Shown here piece by piece: positions 7,321 to 56,000 of a DNA stretch of 64,000 bases (within the stretch, counting starts at the first letter, position 1; every line of letters begins with the position of its first letter). The notes under the pieces were generated by a model. It was not told the DNA's origin. It saw only the letters and a program-made list of their open reading frames with translations, and made no database searches. Position numbers and translations under genes: made by a program. Origin of the DNA: Escherichia phage JM17. The stretch lies in sequence record PP400779; one strand, written 5' to 3'.

Positions 7321-7325
7321 TAATT

Positions 7326-7850
7326 ATGAATTTAATATATCTTATAACCTTTTATAATCGTGAGATTAAAAATGAATACCCGTGTTATTATATAGGTTCT
7401 AAAGTTTCGTGTCATTTTAATGGAAAGGATATTATTGAAGATTCTACCGGTAAAATATATACCGGTAGTGTTAATTCCTCGTATTCTCCTTTATATAACA
7501 GATTAATAGACCAAGGCGAATATTCTGTAAAAATTTTAGGCGAAACCACATTAGACCCTAGAAGAATAGAAAGACTATTCCAACTCAATGTTAAAGCCGT
7601 TTCAAATGAAAAATATTTTAATAAGGCTTATGCTAACGAGAAGTCTAGAATATCAGCTAAAGGATATGCACCGTATAAAAATTTAAAAACAGGCAAAATA
7701 GTAAAACTTTCTAAAAACGAAATAAACGAAGATTACGTCGGTGTTAGAAAAAATTGCAAATTGTCGGAGAATCATTTAAACGCAATTAGAGAATTTCAAA
7801 AAAACATATTGGACCAAAGAACGAAGAGAGAAAGTTTCTATTCGTTCTAA
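7326..7850 (+). CDS. GIY-YIG homing endonuclease, N-terminal catalytic part (seg-like)
   Basis: IYLITFYNREIKNEYPCYYIGSK matches GIY-(x10)-YIG; AT-rich codon usage unlike flanking genes. Confidence 0.55.
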   Translation: MNLIYLITFYNREIKNEYPCYYIGSKVSCHFNGKDIIEDSTGKIYTGSVNSSYSPLYNRLIDQGEYSVKILGETTLDPRRIERLFQLNVKAVSNEKYFNKAYANEKSRISAKGYAPYKNLKTGKIVKLSKNEINEDYVGVRKNCKLSENHLNAIREFQKNILDQRTKRESFYSF

Positions 7851-7854
7851 AAAA

Positions 7855-8217
7855 ATGTTTAACGATAGAGATTTTGCTTTAAAATTTAAAGATATAATGA
7901 ATTCTCCTAATGTTAAAGATAAAATAAAAATATCTAAAACATTGTATTGGTCTAAACCTGAAAATAGAGCAAAGGCCTCTATCGCAGCTTCGAAAAGAAA
8001 TGCAACCAAAGAATTTAAGGATAAATTCAGAAAATCTAAAGCTAGAGGTACATGGATATTTCATGAACAAAAATTAAAGGAATTGTGGATTGCTTTAGGA
8101 AAACCAAGTTATATTACATTTAGAAAACATGCAATTCAGCATGGTTTTAATGATGAATCATACCAAGGTGCTATCCGGTCTTGGACAAATTATTATGCTA
8201 ATAGGAAACCTAAATGA
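7855..8217 (+). CDS. basic protein, possibly the detached C-terminal DNA-binding part of the GIY-YIG endonuclease
   Basis: starts 4 nt after upstream stop in another frame; same AT-rich codon usage; K/R-rich. Confidence 0.35.
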   Translation: MFNDRDFALKFKDIMNSPNVKDKIKISKTLYWSKPENRAKASIAASKRNATKEFKDKFRKSKARGTWIFHEQKLKELWIALGKPSYITFRKHAIQHGFNDESYQGAIRSWTNYYANRKPK

Positions 8218-8900
8218 AACTTAGCCGTGAAACCGTAAATATTCTGAAAAACTTCGCTTCTATTAACTCTGGCATTCTGCTGAGTCAAGGTAAATTTATT
8301 ATGACTCGTGCAGTTAATGGCACCACTTATGCGGAAGCAAATATCTCTGATGAAATTGATTTTGACGTAGCACTTTATGATTTGAATAGCTTCTTAAGCA
8401 TTTTGAGTCTAGTGTCTGATGATGCTGAAATTTCAATGCACACTGATGGCAATATTAAAATTGCAGATACACGTTCCACAGTTTATTGGCCTGCCGCTGA
8501 CAAGAGCACCATTGTTTTTCCTAATAAGCCAATTCAATTCCCAGTGGCTTCTGTGATTACTGAAATTAAAGCTGAAGACCTTCAACAATTGCTTCGAGTT
8601 TCACGTGGACTTCAGATTGATACAATTGCTATTACAAATAAAGATGGTAAAATTGTTATCAATGGCTATAATAAAGTTGAAGATTCCGGACTAACTCGTC
8701 CTAAGTATTCTTTGACTCTTACTGATTATGACGGTTCTAATAACTTTAACTTCGTAATCAATATGGCTAATATGAAAATCCAGCCAGGTAACTATAAAGT
8801 AATGTTGTGGGGAGCTGGTGATAAAGTTGCAGCTAAGTTTGAAAGCTCTCAAGTAAGTTATGTTATTGCGATGGAAGCCGATTCTACTCACGACTTCTAA
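8214..8900 (+). CDS. 45: sliding clamp gp45
   Basis: 228 aa, same length as T4 gp45; synteny 45-44-62. Confidence 0.9.
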   Translation: MKLSRETVNILKNFASINSGILLSQGKFIMTRAVNGTTYAEANISDEIDFDVALYDLNSFLSILSLVSDDAEISMHTDGNIKIADTRSTVYWPAADKSTIVFPNKPIQFPVASVITEIKAEDLQQLLRVSRGLQIDTIAITNKDGKIVINGYNKVEDSGLTRPKYSLTLTDYDGSNNFNFVINMANMKIQPGNYKVMLWGAGDKVAAKFESSQVSYVIAMEADSTHDF

Positions 8901-14524: not shown

Positions 14525-16210
14525 ATGAAAAAAGCTGTTATTCTTGGTGCTGGACTGGCAACTCGTTTGTATCCAATAACGCATCATATTCCTAAGGTGC
14601 TTGTTAACTATAAACAAGATACTATTCTGAGCAATTTGTATACAATTTATTCTGACCTTGGCGCAGATGAAATTATTGTAGTAGTTCATTCAAAATTTGC
14701 TGAAACTGTTCGAGCTTATTGTGAACAAGAAGGGTTCAATGTGACTATTCGTACAGTTGATGAAGCGTATGGTTCTGCTTATGCTCTTGCTAAATTACAC
14801 AAAGATTTAGACGGCCATAATGTAATTGTTAACTGGTGTGATATTATTCCTGATTTTGGTTCATGGTCTTGGAATGTTAACGCAATCTATGTTAAGGGTG
14901 ACGAATGTCGATATAATTTCGACGGTGAAAATATCACTAACGTAGGTTCAACAGGTGGTAATGTTGTAGGAATTTATCAGTTCAAAGACTGGGAATTCTA
15001 TATGGGTTCTACTGATGAGGAAATTCATGAATACTGCAAAGGACGTGATTTCGTAGAATTCCTTTACGGCAGCGCATTCAATAAATCAGAGCTTATGAAT
15101 CTAATTGATTTAGGTGATATGCCTAAACTTGAAAAAGCTCATGAAGTTCGTGAACTTAATCGTAGTTTTAATGCAGTTGAAATTGGTGAAGAAACTGTAA
15201 CTAAATTCGCATTAACCGAACAGGGTCGAGCTCTTCAGAAAGATGAGATTTCGTGGTATCTTAAAGTGAAATCAGATTCAGTTCCTCAGTTAGTTTCTGT
15301 TAATGAAAATAACTTTGAAATGGAACGCATTAAAGGTAAGCCTGCATTTGAATATATTAAATCCAAATCAAGTCTTGCTCGTCCACAAATTGTTGATGCA
15401 ATTTTAGATGCACTGAAATTCAGCACAGACACTTATTTTGTAAGTCCTGAAACTGTTCGTCGTGATTTCACTAAAGAATTCTATACGAAAGTTATTGATC
15501 GTTGTGAAAGCATTCAACCATTGATTGATTCATTTGGTAAAATCACACATGTGAACTACACTAAGATTGGACGTCTGAAGCCAATGCTGAAACAAGCTTT
15601 AGAACACCTCATTCGTTATCATAACCGTTCTCAGGGACAGTACTCTGTTATTCACGGTGACCCGAACTTCAGTAATACTATGATTACTGATAATGGCGAA
15701 GTCAAGTTTATCGACCCTCGTGGATATTTTGGTGAAACCAAGATTTACGGGCCAAAATTGTACGATGAAGCTAAAGTGCTTTACGCTGTTTCAGGTTATG
15801 ATGAATTCAATGCTAATCCGACTTGGGGACAGTTTACTATTGATGAAACAACTTGTAATGTGACTATTAACATCAATCCATTAGTTTACAAATATGGAAA
15901 GATGAGTTCGTTTAACGAGTATCATCATTTGGCAGTGGCAATTATCTGGATTGCATTAGGTGGTTATTTCAAGAATAATCCACTTAAAGCGGTAGCCGCA
16001 TATTATAAAGGTATGGAACTTCTGACTAAGCAATTACGTAACATGGGCCGTGTACTTCAGGACGGCTCTATTAGTTATGACGTAGCAGAACCTGTAACGG
16101 CTACTCTGATTACAAAAAATCCTGGTAAATGGGTACTAACTGATAAAGAAACTGGTGTTTCCTATCGTCCAATCGGTGGCGATATCACTCATCAATGGGA
16201 ACGAATTTGA
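14525..16210 (+). CDS. bifunctional sugar-1-phosphate nucleotidyltransferase / APH-fold sugar kinase
   Basis: 561 aa; N-term AVILGAGLATRLYPIT...PKVLV (NTP-transferase G-loop); C-term VIHGDPNFSN...FIDPRG (Brenner HGDxxxxN and DxxG kinase motifs). Confidence 0.7.
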   Translation: MKKAVILGAGLATRLYPITHHIPKVLVNYKQDTILSNLYTIYSDLGADEIIVVVHSKFAETVRAYCEQEGFNVTIRTVDEAYGSAYALAKLHKDLDGHNVIVNWCDIIPDFGSWSWNVNAIYVKGDECRYNFDGENITNVGSTGGNVVGIYQFKDWEFYMGSTDEEIHEYCKGRDFVEFLYGSAFNKSELMNLIDLGDMPKLEKAHEVRELNRSFNAVEIGEETVTKFALTEQGRALQKDEISWYLKVKSDSVPQLVSVNENNFEMERIKGKPAFEYIKSKSSLARPQIVDAILDALKFSTDTYFVSPETVRRDFTKEFYTKVIDRCESIQPLIDSFGKITHVNYTKIGRLKPMLKQALEHLIRYHNRSQGQYSVIHGDPNFSNTMITDNGEVKFIDPRGYFGETKIYGPKLYDEAKVLYAVSGYDEFNANPTWGQFTIDETTCNVTININPLVYKYGKMSSFNEYHHLAVAIIWIALGGYFKNNPLKAVAAYYKGMELLTKQLRNMGRVLQDGSISYDVAEPVTATLITKNPGKWVLTDKETGVSYRPIGGDITHQWERI

Positions 16211-16956
16211 TACATTATCTCTACAAAACTACTAATCTTATAAACGGTAAAGTTTATTTAGGAATGCACTCGGCTGAAGAAGCCGAGCCTTTAGATTTAT
16301 ATAAAGGTTCTGGTAAATTATATAAAAAGGCTGAAAGGAAATATGGGAAGGAAAATTTTCTTAAAGAAATCATTTCCTACCATAGCTCAAGAGAAGAATT
16401 AAAAATAGCTGAAAAGGCTCTAATAACATTAGACATAGTTAAAGACCCAAATTATTACAATCTTAAAACTGGTGGCGAAGGTGGTTCTGACGGGTTATCC
16501 CAAAGGTCCAAGGATAAAATTTCTAAGGCAAATAAAGGACGTTTAGTTGGTGATAAAAACCCAAGATGGGGTAAAACTTTGTCAGCTGAATCTATAGCTA
16601 GGGGTAAAGAAAAGCACAGGAGGTATGGTAAACCTGCATTACATGGTCTAAAGATTAATGTAGATGGCAAATATTATGAATCCTGTCGGGAAGCGGCTAA
16701 AGATTTAGGTATATCTTCTGCCACGATTCAAAAGAGAGTAAAATCGCCTAAATATCTTAATTATCGGTATCAGGACGAAAGCAAAAATGCTCACAAGTCT
16801 CAAAAATTTGTTAAAATAAACGAAAATTACTATGAATCTCTTAGGATAGCTGAAAAGAAAACGGGTATTCCTAGAAAGCGTATAGCTGATAATATTAAAA
16901 ATTCTATTGAAGGATATTGCTATGAAACCATTACATCTTTGCGTGGACGTCGATGA
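16195..16956 (+). CDS. GIY-YIG homing endonuclease (freestanding, seg-like)
   Basis: 253 aa; HYLYKTTNLINGKVYLGMH = GIY-YIG module; AT-rich codons; overlaps both flanking genes. Confidence 0.7.
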   Translation: MGTNLIHYLYKTTNLINGKVYLGMHSAEEAEPLDLYKGSGKLYKKAERKYGKENFLKEIISYHSSREELKIAEKALITLDIVKDPNYYNLKTGGEGGSDGLSQRSKDKISKANKGRLVGDKNPRWGKTLSAESIARGKEKHRRYGKPALHGLKINVDGKYYESCREAAKDLGISSATIQKRVKSPKYLNYRYQDESKNAHKSQKFVKINENYYESLRIAEKKTGIPRKRIADNIKNSIEGYCYETITSLRGRR

Positions 16957-24044: not shown

Positions 24045-24074
24045 GTTTACATCTTCCTCTAGGCATGATATGAT
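24045..24074 (+). promoter_or_regulatory. early-type promoter
   Basis: gtttac 24045-24050, spacer about 18, tatgat. Confidence 0.45.
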
Positions 24075-24103
24075 GTACTTACACAAACCAAGAGGAAAAC
24101 ATT

Positions 24104-24478
24104 ATGAATATGTCTCAAGCAATTTTTACTGCAATCACCGAAAACACAACTGTTGAAGTAGTTTCTCCGCTGGCAACCTACGTTATTCTTGCTCCTAAAA
24201 CTATTGTATCTCGTATGGAAAACATGGGCAAACGTATCGTACAAATTGTTGGAGCTGGAAATCAAAAACTTGATTATCTACGAACCATCAAAGCTTATGA
24301 ACATTTCCAACTCGAAAAAGGTTCTCCTATCCAGGTAGAACTCGTAAATGGTGATATCGTTCGAGCAATGTTCCATCATTTCTATGCATTGAATGACCCA
24401 TCTAAAGCGGTTCGTTTAATTGCATATGACGCAAACCAAAACGAAATCAACGCAGATGTATCTAAATTACGTTTTTAA
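24104..24478 (+). CDS. hypothetical protein (124 aa)
   Basis: ORF with aagaggaaaacattATG RBS context downstream of early promoter. Confidence 0.4.
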   Translation: MNMSQAIFTAITENTTVEVVSPLATYVILAPKTIVSRMENMGKRIVQIVGAGNQKLDYLRTIKAYEHFQLEKGSPIQVELVNGDIVRAMFHHFYALNDPSKAVRLIAYDANQNEINADVSKLRF

Positions 24479-24507
24479 GTTTACTTCTCCAGTAGTTGTG
24501 TTATTAT
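24479..24507 (+). promoter_or_regulatory. early-type promoter
   Basis: gtttac 24479-24484, 17-nt spacer, tattat 24502-24507. Confidence 0.45.
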
Positions 24508-24533
24508 AGATCTATCAACTACCGGAGAACAAA

Positions 24534-24851
24534 ATGAAAACCATCGATTGTAAAGCAGAATTTAAGATTTTTTATCATGGTTCAAGTAGTTCAGCTAACA
24601 TCGAAAACATGCTTTGTCCTCCTGAAGAAACAGGAGTTCTGTCTGAAACTGGACGTAAGAAAAACTTGGATCGTGTATTCTTTACTGAAGATATCGGTTT
24701 AGCAAAGATTTATGCAGGACGAGCAGCACGCTCTTATGGAGGTGAACCACGTCTCTATCGAGTAATTTCTCCGGTAGATGTAGTTCAAATGAATGATACT
24801 AAAGGTGCTACAGTTTATCACGCTGAATGGGCATTTTGCGAGGAAATATGA
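24534..24851 (+). CDS. hypothetical protein (105 aa)
   Basis: ORF with ggagaacaaaATG RBS; contains YHGSS...Y...E pattern (weak ART-like hint). Confidence 0.4.
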   Translation: MKTIDCKAEFKIFYHGSSSSANIENMLCPPEETGVLSETGRKKNLDRVFFTEDIGLAKIYAGRAARSYGGEPRLYRVISPVDVVQMNDTKGATVYHAEWAFCEEI

Positions 24852-25049: not shown

Positions 25050-25079
25050 GTTTACAAGCCCCACATACTGTGTTACTAT
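25050..25079 (+). promoter_or_regulatory. early-type promoter
   Basis: gtttac 25050-25055, spacer 18, tgttactat extended -10. Confidence 0.45.
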
Positions 25080-25790: not shown

Positions 25791-25822
25791 GTTTACATTA
25801 TAGATGGACTATAGTAGTCCTA
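25791..25822 (+). promoter_or_regulatory. promoter/stem-loop cassette (GTTTAC + ggacta-tag-tagtcc hairpin)
   Basis: gtttac 25791-25796; tatagtagtcct module shared with 45849-45860 and 46361-46372. Confidence 0.35.
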
Positions 25823-25844
25823 TCAAATCAACTAAGGAGTTAAA

Positions 25845-26138
25845 ATGAAAAAGTTATCATTGGCAGCAATCTTACTTGCAGTATCATGTGCACCGTCTCC
25901 AGTTACGGCAGGTTATGATAAAGACCTCTGTGAGTGGTCAATGACTGCAAATCAAGAAGATGTTGAACAACAAATCTTCTCTGATATCATGAACATCACT
26001 AAACGAGACCGTCCTAATATGGTTAATAAAGTTGTTGAACAACTTAAGTCTGGCGGTATCATGCAGTACAATTATGTTTTGTATTGTGACCCTAATTTCG
26101 ATAACAAAGATATCGTAACCGAAATCACAGGTGAATAA
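25845..26138 (+). CDS. predicted lipoprotein (97 aa)
   Basis: MKKLSLAAILLAVSC signal peptide with lipobox. Confidence 0.45.
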   Translation: MKKLSLAAILLAVSCAPSPVTAGYDKDLCEWSMTANQEDVEQQIFSDIMNITKRDRPNMVNKVVEQLKSGGIMQYNYVLYCDPNFDNKDIVTEITGE

Positions 26139-31148: not shown

Positions 31149-31177
31149 GTTTACATTCCCTCCTCTCGTGTTATGAT
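31149..31177 (+). promoter_or_regulatory. early-type promoter
   Basis: gtttac 31149-31154, 17-nt spacer, tatgat 31172-31177. Confidence 0.5.
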
Positions 31178-31204
31178 AGGCTTATCTTTAAATGGAGGTC
31201 TATC

Positions 31205-31786
31205 ATGACATGTCAATCTGAACTTCAAGAACGTGAATACCTAACAAATCTGATTGATAGCAAATTCACCCGCCAAGAACAAAACATTCTCTGGGCTTGC
31301 ACCGATTCTAAGGAAGACCCGGATTTTCACTATGAATTAGACCATCTTGTTCGTAAGCATATGACTTCTACAGTACCAGTAGAACTCTACCGCGGTGTAA
31401 CTCCAGAAGAAGTAGAACGTCTTTCCCTTCTTTCTGTTGGATGCCATTGGTCTCCTGGACGAGTAACATCGTTCACAACTGATTTCAGTACAGCTCGTCA
31501 ATTCTCTGGGAGATGGGAATATCAGACGTACACTATTCTTAGTCTCAGGAATGCTCCATTCATTTTTGATTACTACCAAAACATGATTAACATTGTACTC
31601 GCCGGAAAGAACCCTAAGCATGTTATGGAAGAAACGCGTGTTGACGTCCTAGATATGATTGAATCTGAACAAGAGTACATGGTCTCAAGTATCTCTAGAT
31701 TTGAGATTGTGGAAATTGAAGAGTTAGAGTATGACCCTTTGTCTCGAGTATACAAAATCATTCATTTGAAAATGTTGAATTTTTAG
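31205..31786 (+). CDS. modB: ADP-ribosyltransferase, ModB-like
   Basis: 193 aa; R-S-ExE signature (LYRGV, SFTT, ESEQEYMV); paralogous to next gene; position as T4 modB. Confidence 0.6.
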   Translation: MTCQSELQEREYLTNLIDSKFTRQEQNILWACTDSKEDPDFHYELDHLVRKHMTSTVPVELYRGVTPEEVERLSLLSVGCHWSPGRVTSFTTDFSTARQFSGRWEYQTYTILSLRNAPFIFDYYQNMINIVLAGKNPKHVMEETRVDVLDMIESEQEYMVSSISRFEIVEIEELEYDPLSRVYKIIHLKMLNF

Positions 31787-35659: not shown

Positions 35660-35689
35660 GTTTACAACCAAGGATGGTTGGAGTATAAT
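35660..35689 (+). promoter_or_regulatory. early-type promoter
   Basis: gtttac 35660-35665, spacer 18, tataat 35684-35689. Confidence 0.5.
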
Positions 35690-35719
35690 GAATCTATCTT
35701 AAACAAAGAGAGAAAAAAT

Positions 35720-36184
35720 ATGATTAATATTGGTGAAATTAAACGTGTATCGACAGCGTCTCGTTCTAAAGCTGCAGGAAAGCTGGTTGAAGTAGTAGGA
35801 CTTCGTACTAATGGCATGGGCCGTATTAAAGAAGTTAAAGTTCGAATCATTCCTAGTTCTGGAAAAACTGAAACTCAGTTCGCCTATGTAAGTCCTAAAT
35901 TCTTGGAAACTCGTGTACGTGTCCAATTTGCTTCAAGCGATATCGTTGAGCCTACTACACAGTTCAAATGGGCCCTTTGCAAAGGCGTTGAATTTATAAC
36001 CGATAAAGAATTTGATTACATCGACGAATACGGTTATCCAAGCAAAACTGATACTATGTGCGGCTTCATCAGCGACCAATGGGTTGAAGATGGTAAAAAG
36101 CTATACAATATTGTATTCTTAGGTGACTTCCGAGTTGTTGAAGAATCTGAAATCACTCGCTATGTGTCTCCTCGTAAAGCTTAA
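35720..36184 (+). CDS. hypothetical protein, paralog A of a tandem pair (MotB position)
   Basis: 154 aa from ATG 35720; shares SRSKAAGKLVEV..VKVR..G..YV...F.E...QFKW.LC..V core with next ORF. Confidence 0.45.
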   Translation: MINIGEIKRVSTASRSKAAGKLVEVVGLRTNGMGRIKEVKVRIIPSSGKTETQFAYVSPKFLETRVRVQFASSDIVEPTTQFKWALCKGVEFITDKEFDYIDEYGYPSKTDTMCGFISDQWVEDGKKLYNIVFLGDFRVVEESEITRYVSPRKA

Positions 36185-36617: not shown

Positions 36618-36646
36618 GTTTACTTCTCCTCTGGTTTTGATATTAT
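36618..36646 (+). promoter_or_regulatory. early-type promoter
   Basis: gtttac 36618-36623, 17-nt spacer, tattat. Confidence 0.45.
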
Positions 36647-36672
36647 AACCATATCAACCAGAGGAGAATAAT

Positions 36673-37197
36673 ATGTTAGTTTACCGCGTAGAACGTAGTT
36701 TTTGTACTCAACGTGAATCATTACCAGGAATTGCTATCGAAGACGGTAAAGCCGTCAGAATTTGGGAAACCTCTTGGAATAAAGAACCTCGCTCGCCATA
36801 CGGTTGGTCGGGCACCGACAACTCTGAAGAAACATGGGAGTTCCTTGATAAGCATGGAATACTCTCAGGTAACTTCTACCATCACGGCGACAACTATAAT
36901 GTCCCTAATCGTCCTACAGTAAATGAAGACAAACTCCTTGAACAAAATATCTTAAGATACTATAGAATTGAGCACGCATTTGAATTGAGTGAAGATTGGG
37001 CTCAAGGGTTCTATTTTGGATTTGAAAGTGTTGACGCGGTTTATGCATGGTTTGATGACCAGGTGGATGTTGAACTCTTGAAAGCTAAAGGATACTACAT
37101 CGCGGTCTATGAAGCACCTGATTTCATCCTCGGAAGTTGTCAATTAATGTTTAGACGTTCATTGGCAGAACAAGTTGATTTTATTTTGCTAAAATGA
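36673..37197 (+). CDS. hypothetical protein (174 aa)
   Basis: ORF with accagaggagaataat RBS. Confidence 0.4.
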   Translation: MLVYRVERSFCTQRESLPGIAIEDGKAVRIWETSWNKEPRSPYGWSGTDNSEETWEFLDKHGILSGNFYHHGDNYNVPNRPTVNEDKLLEQNILRYYRIEHAFELSEDWAQGFYFGFESVDAVYAWFDDQVDVELLKAKGYYIAVYEAPDFILGSCQLMFRRSLAEQVDFILLK

Positions 37198-44054: not shown

Positions 44055-44990
44055 ATGTACAATATCAAATGCTTGTCCCAAGAAGAACAGTTAGAAGCTT
44101 ACGGCCTGGTTGAATCAGGCAAATGGACTCGTAAAGAAATTGCCGATTACTTCGACATTTCAACAGATACTCTTCGTAAGATTGTTAAGAATTTTAAAGC
44201 AGAAGAGAAAGCAGCTGAATTTGAAGATGAAGAACAGGTTCCAGAAAATGATGAACCTATTATCGGCGGACATCGTCCTGAAATCGTATGGAACGCGTCA
44301 TCTAAATTTATTTCAATTATTGAAGGACGCGTAGCATACAATGCGACTCCATCAAGTCATGCAAATTTTGAAGAAATTAAAGCTAATCTGGTCGCAGGAA
44401 ACCTTAGTAAAGCTGTCGAACTTATTAACATCAAGAAAGCTATTACTAAGTTTGTTGATGGTAATGTTACTATTGAAGGTGGTAGTTTATTTTATCAAGG
44501 TATAGAGATTCGTTCAGGGCTGGTTAACCGTATTATTGATTCTATGGAAAAAGGTGAAGACTTTAAATTCTATCTGCCATTCCTTGAAAACCTGTTAGAA
44601 AACCCAAGTGAAAAAGCTGTACAACGTTTATTCGACTTCTTGGTTGCAAACGATATTGAAATCACTGAAGATGGTCATTTCTATGCGTGGAAAGTAGTTC
44701 GTAAGGACTATTTAGACTGCTATAGTGGTACATTTGATAACTCGCCTGGTAAAGTTGTTTCAATGCCTCGTACTCGTGTTAACGATGATGATACTCAAAC
44801 CTGCTCCCGTGGTCTACATGTTTGTGCTAAATCATATATTCGTTACTTTGGTTCAAGCTCAGATAAAGTTGTTAAAGTTAAAGTTCATCCACGTGATGTT
44901 GTATCTATCCCAGTTGACTATGGCGATGCTAAGATGCGTACTTGTCGTTACGAAGTAATTTCAGACGTTACTGAATTATTTGCAGAATAA
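44055..44990 (+). CDS. rIIB: rIIB protein
   Basis: 311 aa; MYNIKCLSQEEQ...FLVANDIEITEDGHFYAWKVV...TCSRGLHVC close to remembered T4 rIIB. Confidence 0.85.
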   Translation: MYNIKCLSQEEQLEAYGLVESGKWTRKEIADYFDISTDTLRKIVKNFKAEEKAAEFEDEEQVPENDEPIIGGHRPEIVWNASSKFISIIEGRVAYNATPSSHANFEEIKANLVAGNLSKAVELINIKKAITKFVDGNVTIEGGSLFYQGIEIRSGLVNRIIDSMEKGEDFKFYLPFLENLLENPSEKAVQRLFDFLVANDIEITEDGHFYAWKVVRKDYLDCYSGTFDNSPGKVVSMPRTRVNDDDTQTCSRGLHVCAKSYIRYFGSSSDKVVKVKVHPRDVVSIPVDYGDAKMRTCRYEVISDVTELFAE

Positions 44991-44995
44991 TAATT

Positions 44996-45018
44996 GGGGA
45001 CTTCGGTCCCCTTTTTTC
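44996..45018 (+). terminator. intrinsic terminator (UUCG hairpin + T-run)
   Basis: ggggac-ttcg-gtcccc followed by tttttt. Confidence 0.7.
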
Positions 45019-45031
45019 TTTAGGGGTAATT

Positions 45032-45319
45032 ATGATTCATCCATTTGACGTATCAGAATCCAAAATTGCTAATCTTCGTGGTCATCATAAGTGTAAATCA
45101 GTTTATTGCGCTAAATTGGTAAAACATCCTGGTGATGCACACTACGGCTGGTTAGAATGCGACGAAGTTGTTATTGAAATCCCACCGGTAGATGCAGAAT
45201 ATCTTGAAGAAGGTGACCGCATTTATTTTGGCGAACTACACATCAGAGGTATCTATGGTAAAGACGAACTTGGGGCTGTTGAGGCTGAAGAGTCTTCCGA
45301 CATTTATCCTGTCGAATGA
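45032..45319 (+). CDS. hypothetical protein (95 aa)
   Basis: ORF downstream of rIIB terminator. Confidence 0.35.
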   Translation: MIHPFDVSESKIANLRGHHKCKSVYCAKLVKHPGDAHYGWLECDEVVIEIPPVDAEYLEEGDRIYFGELHIRGIYGKDELGAVEAEESSDIYPVE

Positions 45320-45335
45320 GTTTTTGACTAGCGAA

Positions 45336-45812
45336 ATGAAGGTTAAGATCGCTGATACTGCTCGGTACTCGTTGAAACAAGATCCAGGTCAAATAAAAGA
45401 AGACGTTGTTCGACGTTGTAAGGTTGCAGTCTTTGCAGAGTATGTAGTAGCAAATTGGCTAGACGGATATGTTAATAAAGGTAATGAAGACGTAGAAGAC
45501 CCGTACACGTATGCATGGGACGTTTTAGCTCATCCTAAGTACTGTGGTCTACGCGTAGAAGTAAAGACCCATCAGATGGATTCGAAATGGATTTCGGTTA
45601 CCACAGGATACAGTGGTGATTATCCGGGTGGCAACGGAATCAACATAGGGCCCTTCCTTAATCATCGAGTCGCTGACTGTATTATTATATTGAATGTCAA
45701 AGAAACCTCACCTGACGTCTTCTCTTATTCTATAAAGTTCGTGGGAGACCATGAAGACCTAAAGAAAATCGTCCGCAAGAGCAACTACAACGGGTGGTAT
45801 CTTCATCTTTAA
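45336..45812 (+). CDS. hypothetical protein (about 158 aa)
   Basis: first in-frame ATG after upstream stop; start uncertain. Confidence 0.35.
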   Translation: MKVKIADTARYSLKQDPGQIKEDVVRRCKVAVFAEYVVANWLDGYVNKGNEDVEDPYTYAWDVLAHPKYCGLRVEVKTHQMDSKWISVTTGYSGDYPGGNGINIGPFLNHRVADCIIILNVKETSPDVFSYSIKFVGDHEDLKKIVRKSNYNGWYLHL

Positions 45813-45824
45813 TTTCATAAAAGT

Positions 45825-45860
45825 GTTTACAACTAAGTAGGACTATGATATAGTAGTCCT
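45825..45860 (+). promoter_or_regulatory. promoter/stem-loop cassette (early promoter + IR aggacta/tagtcct)
   Basis: gtttac 45825-45830, spacer 18, tatagt 45849-45854; 7-bp inverted repeat spans the -10. Confidence 0.45.
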
Positions 45861-45880
45861 ATCTAAAAGAGGATAACATC

Positions 45881-46144
45881 ATGAAATTTAAATTTTTCTA
45901 CGCAAAACATAAAGTAACAGGCGAATTTGTTTCAATGTACAACACCGCAGATGACGAAGGGATGATTTATACCCATTTGGGACTATCTCATTGGGACTCA
46001 GACGTGCCTTATATGTCATCTGAAGCCGAAATAACTCGTTTAGTTAATGGACATATGAACGACCATTTTGGTGTTATTCTTTCTAAAGACCTTAAAGAGG
46101 TTATCAACAAAGGATATATGGAACTCGCGGAAGTTGAGATATGA
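45881..46144 (+). CDS. hypothetical protein (87 aa)
   Basis: ORF with aagaggataacatc RBS after promoter cassette. Confidence 0.35.
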   Translation: MKFKFFYAKHKVTGEFVSMYNTADDEGMIYTHLGLSHWDSDVPYMSSEAEITRLVNGHMNDHFGVILSKDLKEVINKGYMELAEVEI

Positions 46145-46336
46145 GCTCTAAAATGTGGATAGGAATATGGTTGCTTAGTATCCCAATGATTTGTATAATA
46201 TTTTCAATTGTGATGAGGTACTTATGAAAAATGCACTTCTTATTGTACTAAGAACAATTTGTGATGCGTGGTTTTACATCGCATGTTCGTTCACTGGAAC
46301 ATGGTTGGCTTTAACATATTTTAATGTAATTTAATT

Positions 46337-46372
46337 GTTTACATCACGGTAGGATTATGGTATAGTAGTCCT
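46337..46372 (+). promoter_or_regulatory. promoter/stem-loop cassette
   Basis: gtttac 46337-46342, spacer 18, tatagt 46361-46366; tatagtagtcct module. Confidence 0.45.
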
Positions 46373-46394
46373 ACTGAAACATGAGGAACACAAA

Positions 46395-46595
46395 ATGGCT
46401 AAGCTTTTTAAAGATGTTGAAATTGGTGAAAAATTTGTTCTGAATAACGGTCAGCAGCTTATTCGTGTAGCTTCTATCGCCGGACAAACTCATAACTGTA
46501 TCGCCCCAACGTGTTGGACTCGATTCTTTATTGAAGATGACACTGAATGTTTAACTGTTGAAGAGCTTTTTGAACGTTCTGATATGGCCGAATAA
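46395..46595 (+). CDS. hypothetical protein (66 aa)
   Basis: ORF downstream of promoter cassette. Confidence 0.35.
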   Translation: MAKLFKDVEIGEKFVLNNGQQLIRVASIAGQTHNCIAPTCWTRFFIEDDTECLTVEELFERSDMAE

Positions 46596-46597
46596 AA

Positions 46598-46635
46598 TTG
46601 TACAAACTCTTGAGAGCAGAGTATAATGCTCTCAT
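46598..46635 (+). promoter_or_regulatory. early-type promoter with palindromic -10 (duplicate of 1139-1177 element)
   Basis: ttgtac -35, tataat 46622-46627; 34-nt identity with 1144-1177. Confidence 0.45.
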
Positions 46636-46671
46636 GGATTACAAAAACATTAATCAATTGAGGAAATTAGC

Positions 46672-47118
46672 ATGTCCAAATATTTAACTCGTAAAGACCT
46701 TCTGGCAGTTGGCGGTGAAGTTGTTGCAGTAGTTCGTAATGGCGAATACGGTTCTGAAGTTTCTAAAGAGTTTCGTTCTCGTGAAGGTTTTTACTTCTTC
46801 GTTAAAGGTTCATCTGATTGGCGACAAGTAGCAGCACGATTCTTTGTAGGACGTCAACGTTCTAAACAAGGGTTGGATGCAATTCTTTCTCACATTCGTC
46901 AAGGCCGTTCACAACTAGCCCGTACCATGGGCACTAACAATATTGAATATGATGTAATCTTTGTTGCAGCTAAGAACATGAAACCACTGACCACTGGTTA
47001 TGGTAAAGGTCAATTGGCTCTGGCATTCACTCGCAACCATACATCAGAATATCAAACACTCACTGAAATGAACCGTCTTCTGGCAGATAATTTCAAATTC
47101 ATTCTGCAGAGTTACTAA
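46672..47118 (+). CDS. ndd: Ndd-like protein (nucleoid disruption), tentative
   Basis: 148 aa; size and position between rIIB and 52; sequence recollection of T4 Ndd is weak. Confidence 0.4.
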
Positions 47119-47170
47119 TTTATACAGGCCTATTAAGTTGGGCCTTTAATTTATTTTTGAGGTAATTAAA

Positions 47171-47317
47171 ATGGTAGCATGGATTATTGCATTGCTGTGT
47201 TGGTCGTTTTTATTCGTTAACACTTTAGTTACAGGCGAAACAACAGTATTTCAACAGGCCGTATCACAAGGTACCTTAGCGGTCTTAGCTCTTCTTAACG
47301 TGTTAAAAGGCGAGTAA
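47171..47317 (+). CDS. small hydrophobic protein (48 aa)
   Basis: gaggt RBS then ATG 47171; below ORF-track cutoff. Confidence 0.3.
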   Translation: MVAWIIALLCWSFLFVNTLVTGETTVFQQAVSQGTLAVLALLNVLKGE

Positions 47318-47457
47318 TGATTAAGAAAATCTTAGCAGGAGCCTTCGGGCTCTTGTTGTTGCTTACGGTTCTGTACTACGGTGTGATGTTTGGACTAATC
47401 CAAGTAGTGCTTTTCATTTCAGATGTTATAATGGTTATTAGTTCATTAATATGGTGA
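47317..47457 (+). CDS. small hydrophobic protein (46 aa)
   Basis: ATG overlaps upstream stop (TAATG); single TM-like segment. Confidence 0.3.
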   Translation: MIKKILAGAFGLLLLLTVLYYGVMFGLIQVVLFISDVIMVISSLIW

Positions 47458-47461
47458 AAAT

Positions 47462-48787
47462 ATGCAATTGAATTCTCGTAATCTAAAAAGTATTATTGAT
47501 AACGAAGCCTTAGCATATGCGATGTACACCGTTGAAAACCGTGCAATCCCAAACATGATTGATGGATTTAAGCCGGTTCAACGTTTTGTGGTTCATCGTG
47601 CGTTAGATTTGGCTCGTGGTAATAAAGAAAAATTTCATAAACTTGCGTCAATTGCAGGCGGTGTTGCAGATTTAGGTTATCACCATGGTGAATCTTCTGC
47701 ACAAGATGCAGGTGCATTGATGGCTAACACATGGAACAACAACTATCCACTGTTAGATGGCCAAGGCAACTTTGGTTCTCGAACAGTCCAAAAAGCTGCA
47801 GCATCTCGTTATATTTTTGCTCGTGTAAGTAAAAATTTCTATAACGTATATAAAGATACTGAATATGCTCCAGCTCATGAAGATAAAGAACACATTCCAC
47901 CAAAATTCTATCTTCCTATTATTCCGACAGTTCTTTTGAATGGTGTCTCTGGTATTGCAACCGGTTACGCAACAAATATTCTGCCTCATAGTTTTAAATC
48001 AGTCAAAAAGGCTGTATTACAAGCTCTTCAAGGTAAAAATGTCACTAAGCCAAAAGTTGAATTCCCGGAATTCCGTGGTGAAGTACATGAAGTTGATGGG
48101 CGTTATGAGATCCACGGAACATATAAGTTCACATCTCGCACTCAAATGCAGATAACTGAAATCCCATATAAATTCGACCGTGAAACGTATGTGAGTAAGG
48201 TTCTTGACCCGTTGGAAGACAAAGGTCTAATCTCATGGGAAGATGATTGTGGTGAACACGGCTTTGGGTTTAAGGTGAAGTTCCGTAAAGAGTACTCGCT
48301 TCCTGATGATGAAGAGCTACGTCATGAAAAAATCATGAAAGATTTTAGTCTCATCGAACGTCGTTCACAAAACATCACAGTGATTAATGAAAAGGGTAAA
48401 TTAGCTGTCTACGATAACGTAGTGGACTTAATCAAAGATTTTGTTGAAGTCCGTAAGACTTACGTTCAGAAACGTATTGACAACAAAATCCTTGAATCTG
48501 AAAAAGCATTTAAACTGGCTTTTGCTAAGGCACACTTCATCAAAAAAGTTATCAACGGTGAAATTGTGATTCAGGGCAAGACTCGTAAAGCTTTGACTGA
48601 AGAGCTAGCACAAATCGAAATGTATAAAGAACATGTCGATAAACTGGTAGGTCTTAACATCTTCCATATCACTTCCGATGAAGCACGTAAACTAGCAGAA
48701 GAAGCTAAAGCTAAGAAAGAAGAAAATGAGTATTGGAAGTCTACTGATGTTGTGACAGAGTACACTAAAGACTTGGAGGCACTTTGA
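47462..48787 (+). CDS. 52: DNA topoisomerase II medium subunit gp52 (GyrA-like)
   Basis: 441 aa; MQLNSRNLKSIIDNEALAYAMYTVENRAIPNMIDGFKPVQR close to remembered T4 gp52. Confidence 0.9.
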   Translation: MQLNSRNLKSIIDNEALAYAMYTVENRAIPNMIDGFKPVQRFVVHRALDLARGNKEKFHKLASIAGGVADLGYHHGESSAQDAGALMANTWNNNYPLLDGQGNFGSRTVQKAAASRYIFARVSKNFYNVYKDTEYAPAHEDKEHIPPKFYLPIIPTVLLNGVSGIATGYATNILPHSFKSVKKAVLQALQGKNVTKPKVEFPEFRGEVHEVDGRYEIHGTYKFTSRTQMQITEIPYKFDRETYVSKVLDPLEDKGLISWEDDCGEHGFGFKVKFRKEYSLPDDEELRHEKIMKDFSLIERRSQNITVINEKGKLAVYDNVVDLIKDFVEVRKTYVQKRIDNKILESEKAFKLAFAKAHFIKKVINGEIVIQGKTRKALTEELAQIEMYKEHVDKLVGLNIFHITSDEARKLAEEAKAKKEENEYWKSTDVVTEYTKDLEAL

Positions 48788-53005: not shown

Positions 53006-56000
53006 TGCTAAACGAACGATATAGTTAAAAGCAATGTTTTTAACCGTGTTTTCTGTATTACCTGTACTATTTACAGTGATAGTATGACCATGCGAGCCAA
53101 TTGCTACCGAGTGAGTATGAGCACCAATACCTACAGTATGTGTATGGGCACCAATACCTACAGTATGCGCGTGGTTACCCGTAGAGCTAGTAGTACCAGA
53201 CCAAGAGTGTGTATGGTTACCTTCTGTAGATGACTTTGCAATATATTGGCTTGAACCAGGCACGACACCGTTGCTTAGGCCAAAACCAACAACCTGGTTT
53301 CCACTAATTAGAGTAGACCCATTAGGAAATATCCCTGTTGGTTGATTATTAGGACCCCTTGGACCGGTTTGTGAGTGCTGGTGGTTACCTGCTGCACCAG
53401 TAGTACCGCTTACTGTATGGTTATGGTTACCTGTTGTATTGCTAGTCTTCGTACCATAATCAAAGCTTGAAGAGGTTTTAGTACCATAATCAAAACTTGA
53501 TGTGTTTTTAGTACCCAAATCTGTGCTTGATGCACTTGCACTATGGCTATGTGACTTAACACCATCTGCTTCTGTACTTAATACAGCACGCCCAGATGGT
53601 TTACCCTTGATAGTTTGACCACGCATATCCGGAATAGTACCAGTAGGATATGCAACAGCCAATTTTGGGTATGCAGACTTATCAAAAGTCTGTCCTTCCA
53701 TAATAGCGTAACCTTCAGGAGGTGTATCAGTAGGCCAAGGAATCGGAGCACCAATTGGGTAACTCGACACAATATCTGTCTTAAGGTTATTTATTGTGGT
53801 ATTCAAGTTAGCAAAATTACCAGTGCCGCCAGTGATGTTACCATCAGTACCGAATTGAGCATTACCAACTTTTAATGGTTTTGAAAAAAGAACATCGTCG
53901 GTTCTAAATGCAACCCCATGACCTAATGCATTACTATATAAGTTAAGTTCATCTGAACTACCACTCCCATTACCAACGAACCATTTAACCGTATTAGCTT
54001 TTTTACCCTGAATATAAACAGGGTTGGTCGATGAAACCGAGTTAATAATAAGCGCGGCGTTATTAGCGTTAATTGTGATAGCTTGCCCTGATGTTGTTCT
54101 ACTAGTTTCTACTTTAAATCTTCCACCGCCGATATCAACATCATGATCCATGGAAACTTTACCATCACTTAATGTAATATAGAACGGACGTAAATTAGAA
54201 ATACCACCTGATTCACCAGCATTCTGTGGAGTTGGAATAATATAAAGCTTATCTTCAGAACGACGGAAAATAGCCCCGTATTCAGCATTCCAAATTCTTA
54301 ATGCATCAGCTGTTCCGCCGATTTTAACTTGCCCGGTAATAGAAGAACCACCTTGGACAAACAAACCGTTAGACATAGTAACATTGCCACCAAAAGAACC
54401 TGTACCGGAGGCACTTATATTACCAAGGCCTATGATATGGCCTGTTTCGACAGTTCCGTTAAATTTAAAGTTAACCGGACCTACTGTTTCACCAGAAGCC
54501 GGGTTGGTACGTTGAGCATAAAAATAATAACCATGCCCGTCAGCTAATTCAAAAACTGTTTCACGAGTACGATCGCCAGATGCGTTAAATGAATTACCCC
54601 ACGCTTTAATAGATACATAACTTTTATTCTGACCTGCGCGAGTACCACCAGCCCACAGTATAGTTTTAGTGCCATCTGTTGTTGTAGGAGCGTCAAGTTG
54701 AATACCGTCGGGTCTAGCACCAGTAAGAACTAATCCATTATCAAATTTAATTCTTTGTATTGAAGATACTGTTCCGTCGGCATAAAACTGTACATTATTA
54801 GAACCAGTTACCAGTTTCAAAATACCCGGGTTAACTTCCATACCTTCTTGTGTATTAATGTTGGTTTGGCCTTTACCGCGGAAATAGTGGGACATTTTCC
54901 CGCCTGAGTTATAGCCAATATGCGTCTGGCCGTCTCCAGCAGTGTTTTCATCAGCTTGTGTTTGAACCGATAAAAACGCGGCGTTGGTTCCAGGCATAAT
55001 CCATGTTGTACCTTGGTCCTCGGAACGACCAAAAATCGCTTTACGGGTACTACGGAAACTATAAGGAGTAATAGATGCGACAGAATTCCCTGAACCAACT
55101 AAATCATAAACACCGGTTTTTTTGTATGATAGCCCCGTCCCGTTATCGCCTAGAGCTAAATAAACACCGAATCCTAAAGCGGCACCATTACCATAGTCGC
55201 TTGACGGGTATCCTGCAGTCACGGTCCCGATGGCTATGCTATTGCGGACGATCATTCGGCCGTCATTACGAATACCATATAATTTAAATGATGGTGTATT
55301 ACCAGTCCACCAAGAAACTTCATCAGCCTGGTCTGTTTGTGCAGTAACAATTTCATGATACATTGTACCACCGGATTTAGCTCGCACTTTACGAAGATAG
55401 TTTACACCATTCGTTTCACCGGTTCCAGGATAAACATAGTTAACCAAAGATTGTGAATCATATTGTCCAAATGATTTAGAATCATGATTAATTAAATTAA
55501 CACTAATAGTTGGTGTACTAATAGAAGTTAAAGCAGTTAATTTGCGTGCCTGGAAGATACCGCCATCAGTAGAAATGAAATGAAATTCTGAATTTTGAGC
55601 TTCCGCAGCGGTTCCTTGACGAACACGCATTGTAATTACGCCTTCATTTTCAGACTGCGGGTTTGAATATAAAACGCCACGTTCTGAGCCATTTGTATTT
55701 TCAAACCAAAGATGGGCCTTTGCAGTATCATTTATTGCTCTTGTATAAAATGAACCGGATGTTGATCTGAATACTGTAGCAGAAACAATATTACTTGCCG
55801 TAATAGTACCACTTGTAGAAAAATTTCCAAAGTTGTTTATTGGTCCATTGACGCGTAAAGTTCCATCAATAGTTACATTTCCATCAATTTGACCGCCTTT
55901 AGCAATACCTAGATCAATGATATTTCCTGTATCATCTTTAGTAAAAATTGTTCTATCTTTTAAGTTTATAGCCAATTCACCTTCGGCTAATACTGAAGCA

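Follow-up and report, generated by a model that had tools for sequence, protein, structure and literature searches.

What are the two promoter-like repeats that stand 512 bp apart among very small genes of a T4-type phage, and why does each carry an inverted repeat over its −10 box? The DNA analysed here (the window) is a stretch of 64,000 nt from Escherichia phage JM17 (PP400779), numbered from its first letter. It is ~97–98% identical to Mosigvirus phages, which are RB69-like T4-type coliphages. The repeats, cassettes A1 and A2, sit in the rIIB–denB–ndd early region, where the local order is rIIA, rIIB, orf95, denB, (A1), orf87, orf28, orf36, (A2), ndd.1, (B2), ndd, ac, orf46, gp52 and motA.

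Paired promoter cassettes in the denB–ndd region

The first-pass annotation, made from the sequence alone, had described two cassettes (45825–45860 and 46337–46372), each consisting of GTTTAC, 18 nt and the 12-mer TATAGTAGTCCT, and both read exactly so. The window contains exactly three copies of the 12-mer (25810, 45849 and 46361), all on the + strand; with one mismatch at most allowed, chance would give 0.23 matches, and none of 100 shuffles reached three. A1 and A2 lie inside a longer, 54-nt direct repeat (45808–45861 and 46320–46373) with 80% identity and the same spacing. The very small ORFs reported next to them are also present: orf87, orf28 and orf36 lie between A1 and A2, and ndd.1 follows A2. 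The three ORFs of the interval are conserved phage ORFs without an assigned function, and orf28 resembles T4 ndd.6. The features of the locus are as follows.

45808–45880, + strand: cassette A1, in the denB/orf87 intergenic region
45826–45831, + strand: −35 box of A1, TTTACA (GTTTAC at 45825–45830), a consensus match
45849–45854, + strand: −10 box of A1, TATAGT, after a 17-nt spacer with TG at 45846–45847
45837–45846 and 45853–45862, + strand: hairpin arms of A1, folding in the sense RNA
45869–45872, + strand: Shine–Dalgarno motif GAGG of A1, with the ATG at 45881
45881–46334, + strand: A1–A2 module, with orf87 (45881–46144), orf28 (46141–46227) and orf36 (46224–46334)
46320–46394, + strand: cassette A2, in the orf36/ndd.1 intergenic region
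46338–46343 and 46361–46366, + strand: −35 box TTTACA and TG-extended −10 box TATAGT of A2
46347–46358 and 46365–46376, + strand: hairpin arms of A2, G·U pairs included
46395–46595, + strand: ndd.1 homologue of 66 aa, predicted from sequence to be driven by A2; ATG at 46395, Shine–Dalgarno motif GAGG in 'catgagg' a few nucleotides past the stem

Each cassette fills its intergenic gap with the same parts in the same order: a stop codon, an AT-rich stretch, GTTTACA, a 17-nt spacer with TGn, TATAGT, CCTATC, a Shine–Dalgarno motif and an ATG. The AT-rich stretch is 15/17 A/T in A1 (45808–45824, TTTAATTTCATAAAAGT; stop codon at 45810–45812) and 16/17 A/T in A2 (46320–46336; stop codon at 46332–46334). 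Both cassettes read TTTACA-N17-TATAGT with TGn, have arms of the type AGGA...TCCT and match the T4 early-promoter consensus, which Miller et al. (2003), as quoted in GenBank annotation, give as GTTTAC-N14-gtggTAttaT. When 44900–47600 was scanned neutrally for the consensus, the best three matches on the + strand were A1, A2 (both TG-extended) and a further cassette at 46599.

In RB69, 57 early promoters have been predicted and C was noted at −3 to −1 (Nolan et al. 2006, PMC1524935). The cassettes share with T4 early promoters the GTTTAC −35 box, the 17-nt spacing, the TGn, a −10 box of the form TAnnnT, the C-rich −3 to −1 positions and the siting before early genes; Nolan et al. make no mention of hairpins. 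Given the initiation motif CCTATC and the RB69 preference for C (PMC1524935), we place +1 at the A of this motif, which would be A 45861 in A1 and A 46373 in A2. No transcription-start-site map for T4-type coliphages turned up in a literature search on T4-type early promoters, and A1 and A2 are treated here as predicted promoters.

The first-pass annotation had also embedded the −10 box in an inverted repeat. This is borne out, as both copies fold as sense RNA: 45837–45846 pairs with 45853–45862 in A1 (−13.2 kcal/mol, z −3.3), and 46347–46358 pairs with 46365–46376 in A2 (−16.1 kcal/mol, z −4.8). The hairpins share with rho-independent terminators an intergenic position after a stop codon, and an A-type cassette of phage SA21RB is annotated as one, but the stems differ in being weak, AU-rich and devoid of a U-tract (tails TCTAAAAG and CTGAAACA). 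For these reasons, we do not regard the A hairpins as canonical intrinsic terminators; they also went uncalled as terminators on the + strand in the scan of 44900–47600. Canonical terminator-like hairpins followed by a T-run occur nearby, at 44996–45011 after rIIB (GGGGACTTCGGTCCCC) and at 47126–47145 after ndd (AGGCC...GGCCT), in contrast to the U-less hairpins of the cassettes. A search with Rfam covariance models returned only a sub-threshold chance match elsewhere in the region (S15 leader, E 0.13).

A third copy and the wider cassette families

A third copy of the module had been reported at 25806–25822. The 12-mer is indeed present at 25810, between imm and sp, but the promoter geometry around it differs, with GTTTAC only 13 nt from TATAGT.

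25791–25845, + strand: cassette A3, in the imm/sp intergenic region; GTTTAC at 25791–25796, TATAGT at 25810–25815, sp ATG at 25846
25803–25811 with 25815–25824, + strand: residual hairpin of A3

The two relatives fetched for this site (L005 and L006) have GTTTAC-18 nt-TATAGT with a tandem TATAG TATAG, of which the window (25798–25815) lacks one unit. All 152 of the 152 genus records fall within a 90–95% identity band at this copy, and for the 12 records listed the 94.0% match over 84 nt is accounted for by the 5-nt gap alone. The standard spacing in relatives, together with this identity band, therefore points to a 5-bp deletion of one TATAG unit that is private to the window phage; a sequencing error is the alternative. 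Because the spacer after TTTACA is 12 nt instead of 17, outside the 17-nt promoter spacing, and the TGn is lost, this isolate probably has a disabled sp (spackle) promoter. We also considered A3 as a recombination scar. A difference of ~211 bp to relatives lies nearby, but the indel is at about 25029 and not at the cassette. At that position, gene 61.4 (204 bp) of the compared relatives is missing, with ATTTC microhomology at the junction, ~20 nt 5′ of an early promoter at 25051.

The count of three copies thus stands for the 12-mer in the window, whereas the family itself is larger. The complete close relative LR027391.1 has ~nine A-type copies (5030, 25640, 26152, 45583, 114756, 118606, 121704, 123268 and 134033), all on the coding strand and 5′ of small ORFs, and five of these fall in the variable 112–137 kb region. 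The A consensus is found at 6–9 places per genome across the genus; Tequatrovirus, Dhakavirus, CC31 and Acinetobacter T4-like phages have single copies. The A sub-family is marked out by its −10 variant, TATAGT, and its discriminator, AGTCCT, and A1, A2 and A3 each lie directly 5′ of early-region genes.

At least two further repeated families, B and C, occur in the window. Family B (GAGAGC...TATAAT GCTCTC; ACAaactcttGAGAGCagagTATAATGCTCTCat) has four copies in LR027391.1 and two in the window (1141 and 46599), and these two share about 33 identical nucleotides (1141–1200 and 46599–46671). Family C, with the spacer CCAAGGATGG, has several copies, one of them in the window.

1141–1200, + strand: cassette B1, paralogue of B2; TTTACA at 1141–1146, TATAAT at 1164–1169, arms 1153–1160 and 1169–1176
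46599–46671, + strand: cassette B2, in the ndd.1/ndd intergenic region; TGTACA at 46599–46604, −10 box TATAAT at 46622–46627
46608–46618 and 46627–46638, + strand: arms of the B2 hairpin, GAGAGC...GCTCTC
35660–35723, + strand: family C cassette (TTTACAACCAAGGATGGTTGGAGTATAAT), a hybrid of the pair on either side of motB.1 in the relative

Relation to promoter–early-stem-loop elements

Promoter-early-stem-loop elements (PeSLs) have been described for RB49/phi1 (Arbiol et al. 2010, PMC2839356) and for T4/PST and KVP40/nt-1 (Comeau et al. 2014, PMC4122927). The T4/PST type has the promoter TTTACW-N17-TAYWAT and the stem AGNA-loop-TCNT, with the ndd region as an example (PMC4122927). The resemblance suggested by the first-pass annotation holds, as the published definition fits the cassettes. 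They have the AT-rich stretch, the sigma-70-like early promoter, the stem-loop between the boxes or over the −10 box (with G–T pairs), the Shine–Dalgarno motif and the ATG in the same order; they recur in intergenic DNA, chiefly among small non-essential ORFs; they are associated with indels and replacements whose crossovers lie at the −35 box, the −10 box or the leader; and denB–ndd is the very locus of the T4/PST example (fig. 6A of PMC4122927). One objection was that the legend of the T4/PST figure puts the stem-loop 5′ of the promoter (PMC4122927). We dropped it because the original definition takes in stem-loops that overlap the −35 or −10 box as well as those between the two (PMC2839356).

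The flagged repeats are therefore a further genus and sub-family of an element that is already known. The RB69 group was not analysed in the PeSL papers, and here one sub-family has grown to ~nine near-identical copies per genome. The stems also differ from those of RB49 (GGGG...CCCC) in being AU-rich (AGGA...TCCT, as in T4/PST) and without a U-tail, so that terminator strength cannot be assumed for them. The authors of the PeSL work proposed that the stem-loop insulates modules as an attenuator or 3′-end structure, and they showed this for one GC-rich stem-loop of RB49/phi1 (PMC2839356). Recombination between neighbouring PeSLs may also form mini-circles, for which A1 and A2, direct repeats 512 bp apart, are candidates. 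Taken together, we read the cassettes as composite, PeSL-type early promoters for sigma-70 in a T4-type phage, with a probability of about 0.8.

Sequence evidence for maintenance of the hairpin

We surveyed stems at the 51 early-type promoters with a downstream gene in LR027391.1. The left arm was taken from the spacer and the right arm from the sequence after the −10 box, and pairs were summed with each G·U counted as half. Seventeen of the 51 promoters have a stem score of at least 8, against 1.8 by shuffling and 3.9 by partner swapping, and 11 score at least 10 (0.13 by shuffling, 1.05 by partner swapping). Long stems that straddle the −10 box are about tenfold enriched over shuffles.

Arms also change together between copies. 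For example, GGACTA/TAGTCC in some copies corresponds to GGGTTA/TAGCCC in others, and GAGAGC/GCTCTC of family B corresponds to AGGAGC/GCTCCT in one LR027391.1 copy (two changes). A stepwise A:T, G·U, G:C series is seen among the copies. At the positional counterparts in T4 and JS98 the hairpin is kept with unrelated arms; the arms at the JS98 counterpart of B2, for instance, differ. Pairing also favours one strand: A2 folds at −16.1 kcal/mol as sense RNA versus −6.8 as antisense, and non-Watson–Crick cells on the sense strand are G·U in 28 cases versus A·C in 6. Counted by event, the strand test gives 6 versus 1 (p = 0.06) and is suggestive only. Together, the compensatory changes and the sense-strand G·U bias suggest upkeep as a single-strand structure.

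The complementarity could instead be functionless, a by-product of the promoter consensus (spacer against the CCTATC discriminator), of the common descent of duplicated cassettes and possibly of quasi-palindrome correction in replication. The promoter consensus itself does supply part of the complementarity, and many copies are paralogues. Fixed-register pairing at promoters with a 17-nt spacer is significant with all 81 cassettes, but the excess falls to p about 0.08 with 32 family representatives, and partner-shuffled cassettes pair at 58% versus 64% observed. We make no claim of family-independent covariation because the test with 32 representatives is not significant; IMG/VR loci around ndd numbered only three, near-identical and too few for covariation analysis. 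A by-product is nevertheless unlikely in view of the long stems, which stand at about four times the partner-swap level, the compensatory double changes, the unrelated arms of the hairpins at the counterparts in other genera and the finding that a PeSL stem-loop of RB49/phi1 lowered expression of a downstream reporter (PMC2839356).

The same data bear on a reading of the inverted repeat as a palindromic operator (TAGGACTA-N8-TAGTCCTA), at which a dimeric phage protein across the −10 box would shut off early promoters. An inverted repeat over the −10 box is typical of repressor operators, the half-sites are identical in the three window copies and the way in which T4 shuts off its early promoters is described as unknown (PMC3014915; PMC2988021). 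However, the arm sequences differ by cassette family, with compensatory changes; stem type and register vary, some stems straddling the −10 box and others reaching the Shine–Dalgarno motif; and the imperfect pairs are mostly G·T on one strand only, the antisense fold of A2 being poor. Arms that are variable, covarying and strand-asymmetric fit single-strand pairing rather than recognition of a duplex by one protein, and we therefore consider an operator very unlikely.

A third possibility has precedent in T4, where hairpins at e, soc, 49 and I-TevI gate translation: the ribosome site is sequestered in read-through RNA, and only transcripts from the internal promoter are translated. This mechanism is established for late promoters (PMC3014915). 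The flagged cassettes resemble these cases in having the promoter within the hairpin, with the complete structure only in RNA initiated upstream. The T4 examples, however, are late promoters with the Shine–Dalgarno motif or AUG in the helix, whereas the helix of the flagged cassettes stops short of it. The right arm in the A1, A2, A3 and B cassettes extends to about +2 to +4 and leaves a gap of 7 nt or more to the Shine–Dalgarno motif; the arms of A1 and A2 end at 45862 and 46376, with the motifs downstream of the helix. Because the helix ends before the Shine–Dalgarno motif, gating of translation is not applicable to the A and B cassettes, and for them we consider it extremely improbable. By sequence, it fits other early promoters of the window: those at 24480 and 36619 have arms of 11–14 bp with the Shine–Dalgarno motif as the right arm, those at 24046 and 31150 are similar, and T4 ndd.4 and JS98 ndd.4 have the same arrangement.

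These promoters with a spacer complementary to the Shine–Dalgarno motif are an observation in their own right. They lie at 24046–24125, 24480–24555, 31150–31215 and 36619–36690 of the window (for example, CTCCTCTGGTT...AACCAGAGGAG, 11 bp, at 36619), and the regB promoter of the relative has a 14-bp version of the complementary arm. Read-through RNA would hide the ribosome site, and the promoter's own RNA would not. We found no description in the literature of Shine–Dalgarno sequestering by a hairpin at early promoters; it is documented in T4 for late promoters.

Gene exchange at the cassettes

Elements of this kind have been proposed to shuffle gene modules, and a comparison with synteny breakpoints had been suggested for the cassettes. 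This expectation held for members of the family but, within the genus, not for the flagged pair. We took a census of the hyperplastic 112–137 kb region in five relatives, which yielded 40 unique breakpoints; cassettes make up 5% of the region. Thirteen of the 40 breakpoints fall inside a cassette, against 2.0 expected, and none of 5,000 permutations reached 13. Selection for viable recombinants alone would drive breakpoints into intergenic DNA; with a null restricted to non-coding DNA, 9 of 15 breakpoints are at cassettes against 4.8 (p about 0.02), a modest enrichment.

Junctions of the A family were read base by base. TH12 has an additional ORF module directly 3′ of the A copy at 114733, and the same copy immediately precedes a 3-kb replacement in O157 typing phage 3. 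Both TH12 and ESh27 lack the ORF before the A copy at 123245, with the junction at the −35 box. In one case, a module of promoter, 67-aa ORF and A cassette is ~90% identical between Tequatrovirus SA21RB (410–764 of L019) and LR027391.1 (122953–123307), with a handful of differences in the 67-aa ORF, and homology stops at the cassette. The module occupies different genomic sites in the two phages, and its flanks are 74–83% identical to genes 13 kb away.

Two of the indels between the window and LR027391.1 are cassette-to-cassette joins, at the B1 −35 box and at the −10 box of family C. In the first, the window lacks a 296-bp module of LR027391.1 (promoter core and 79-aa ORF), and the junction coincides exactly with the B1 −35 hexamer, T[T/G/A]TACA (1141–1147). 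In the second, at 35660 of the window, two family C cassettes are fused with the crossover at the −10 box, and motB.1 is lost. Similarly, the CEV1 contig KM389390.1 lacks 24102–24524 of the window (a 124-aa ORF between the promoters at 24046 and 24480), a cassette-to-cassette deletion with its crossover in GGA(G) of the Shine–Dalgarno region.

The remaining indels between the window and LR027391.1 are two homing-endonuclease insertions and two microhomology deletions. By PHROG match, each of the insertions (7324–8239 and 16207–16930) encodes a homing-endonuclease-like protein. One of them separates rpbA from gene 45, and the other follows a 561-aa ORF (14525–16210); a 120-aa ORF at 7855–8217 had no family match. 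A 184-bp deletion at 1841–1842 lies in a small ORF 5′ of gene 55, where there is no cassette. A divergent block at 53851–55871 (79% identity or unalignable) covers long-tail-fibre/adhesin genes, for which host-range variability is expected.

The flagged pair is invariant in 152 of 152 genus genomes: no A1 × A2 deletion was found in these records, all of which keep the orf87/orf28/orf36 interior, and none shows a rearrangement at A1, A2 or A3. Between genera, A1 and A2 bracket a slot that differs, with orf87, orf28 and orf36 in the window versus ndd.6,.5,.4,.3,.2a and.2 in T4; JS98 also differs. At the level of sequence, these comparisons show a role of the cassette family in recombination.

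Proposed role of the cassettes

As early promoters of the PeSL kind, the cassettes would be used by host RNA polymerase immediately after infection, starting at the A of CCTATC and giving each small-gene module an early transcript of its own. The left arm occupies about −24 to −15, within the spacer, and the right arm about −8 to +2/+4. Because the left arm is 5′ of the predicted +1, the complete hairpin would form only in read-through RNA from an upstream promoter and never in the cassette's own transcript. Most likely, the hairpin attenuates upstream transcription or marks its 3′ end, which would insulate the modules from one another. The same 30–50 nt, repeated ~nine times per genome in one orientation, also offer homology patches to the phage recombination system, so that the modules they bound are deleted, inserted, replaced and moved.

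About a third of the early promoters of this phage have the left arm 5′ of +1. A tentative and rather doubtful extension is that the promoter-nested hairpin is a general means of marking the start point of a transcript. If so, read-through RNA would carry a boundary structure at each module that the module's own transcript lacks. Read-through RNA of the A and B type would be attenuated or trimmed, and that of the Shine–Dalgarno type would be untranslatable and RegB-protected, as at the regB promoter itself. Early gene dosage in T4-type phages would then be set module by module, and the hairpins would be selected for that, beyond their roles as terminators or recombination linkers.

In the main, our analysis confirms and extends earlier work, in that the PeSL cassette system is also present in a large RB69-like genus to which many therapeutic and typing phages belong. 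It adds junctions at the level of single bases and a cassette-bounded module whose genomic site differs between two genera. In practical terms, the cassettes predict the places at which related phages vary in gene content, and they mark sites at which an engineered insertion will probably be tolerated and give early expression.
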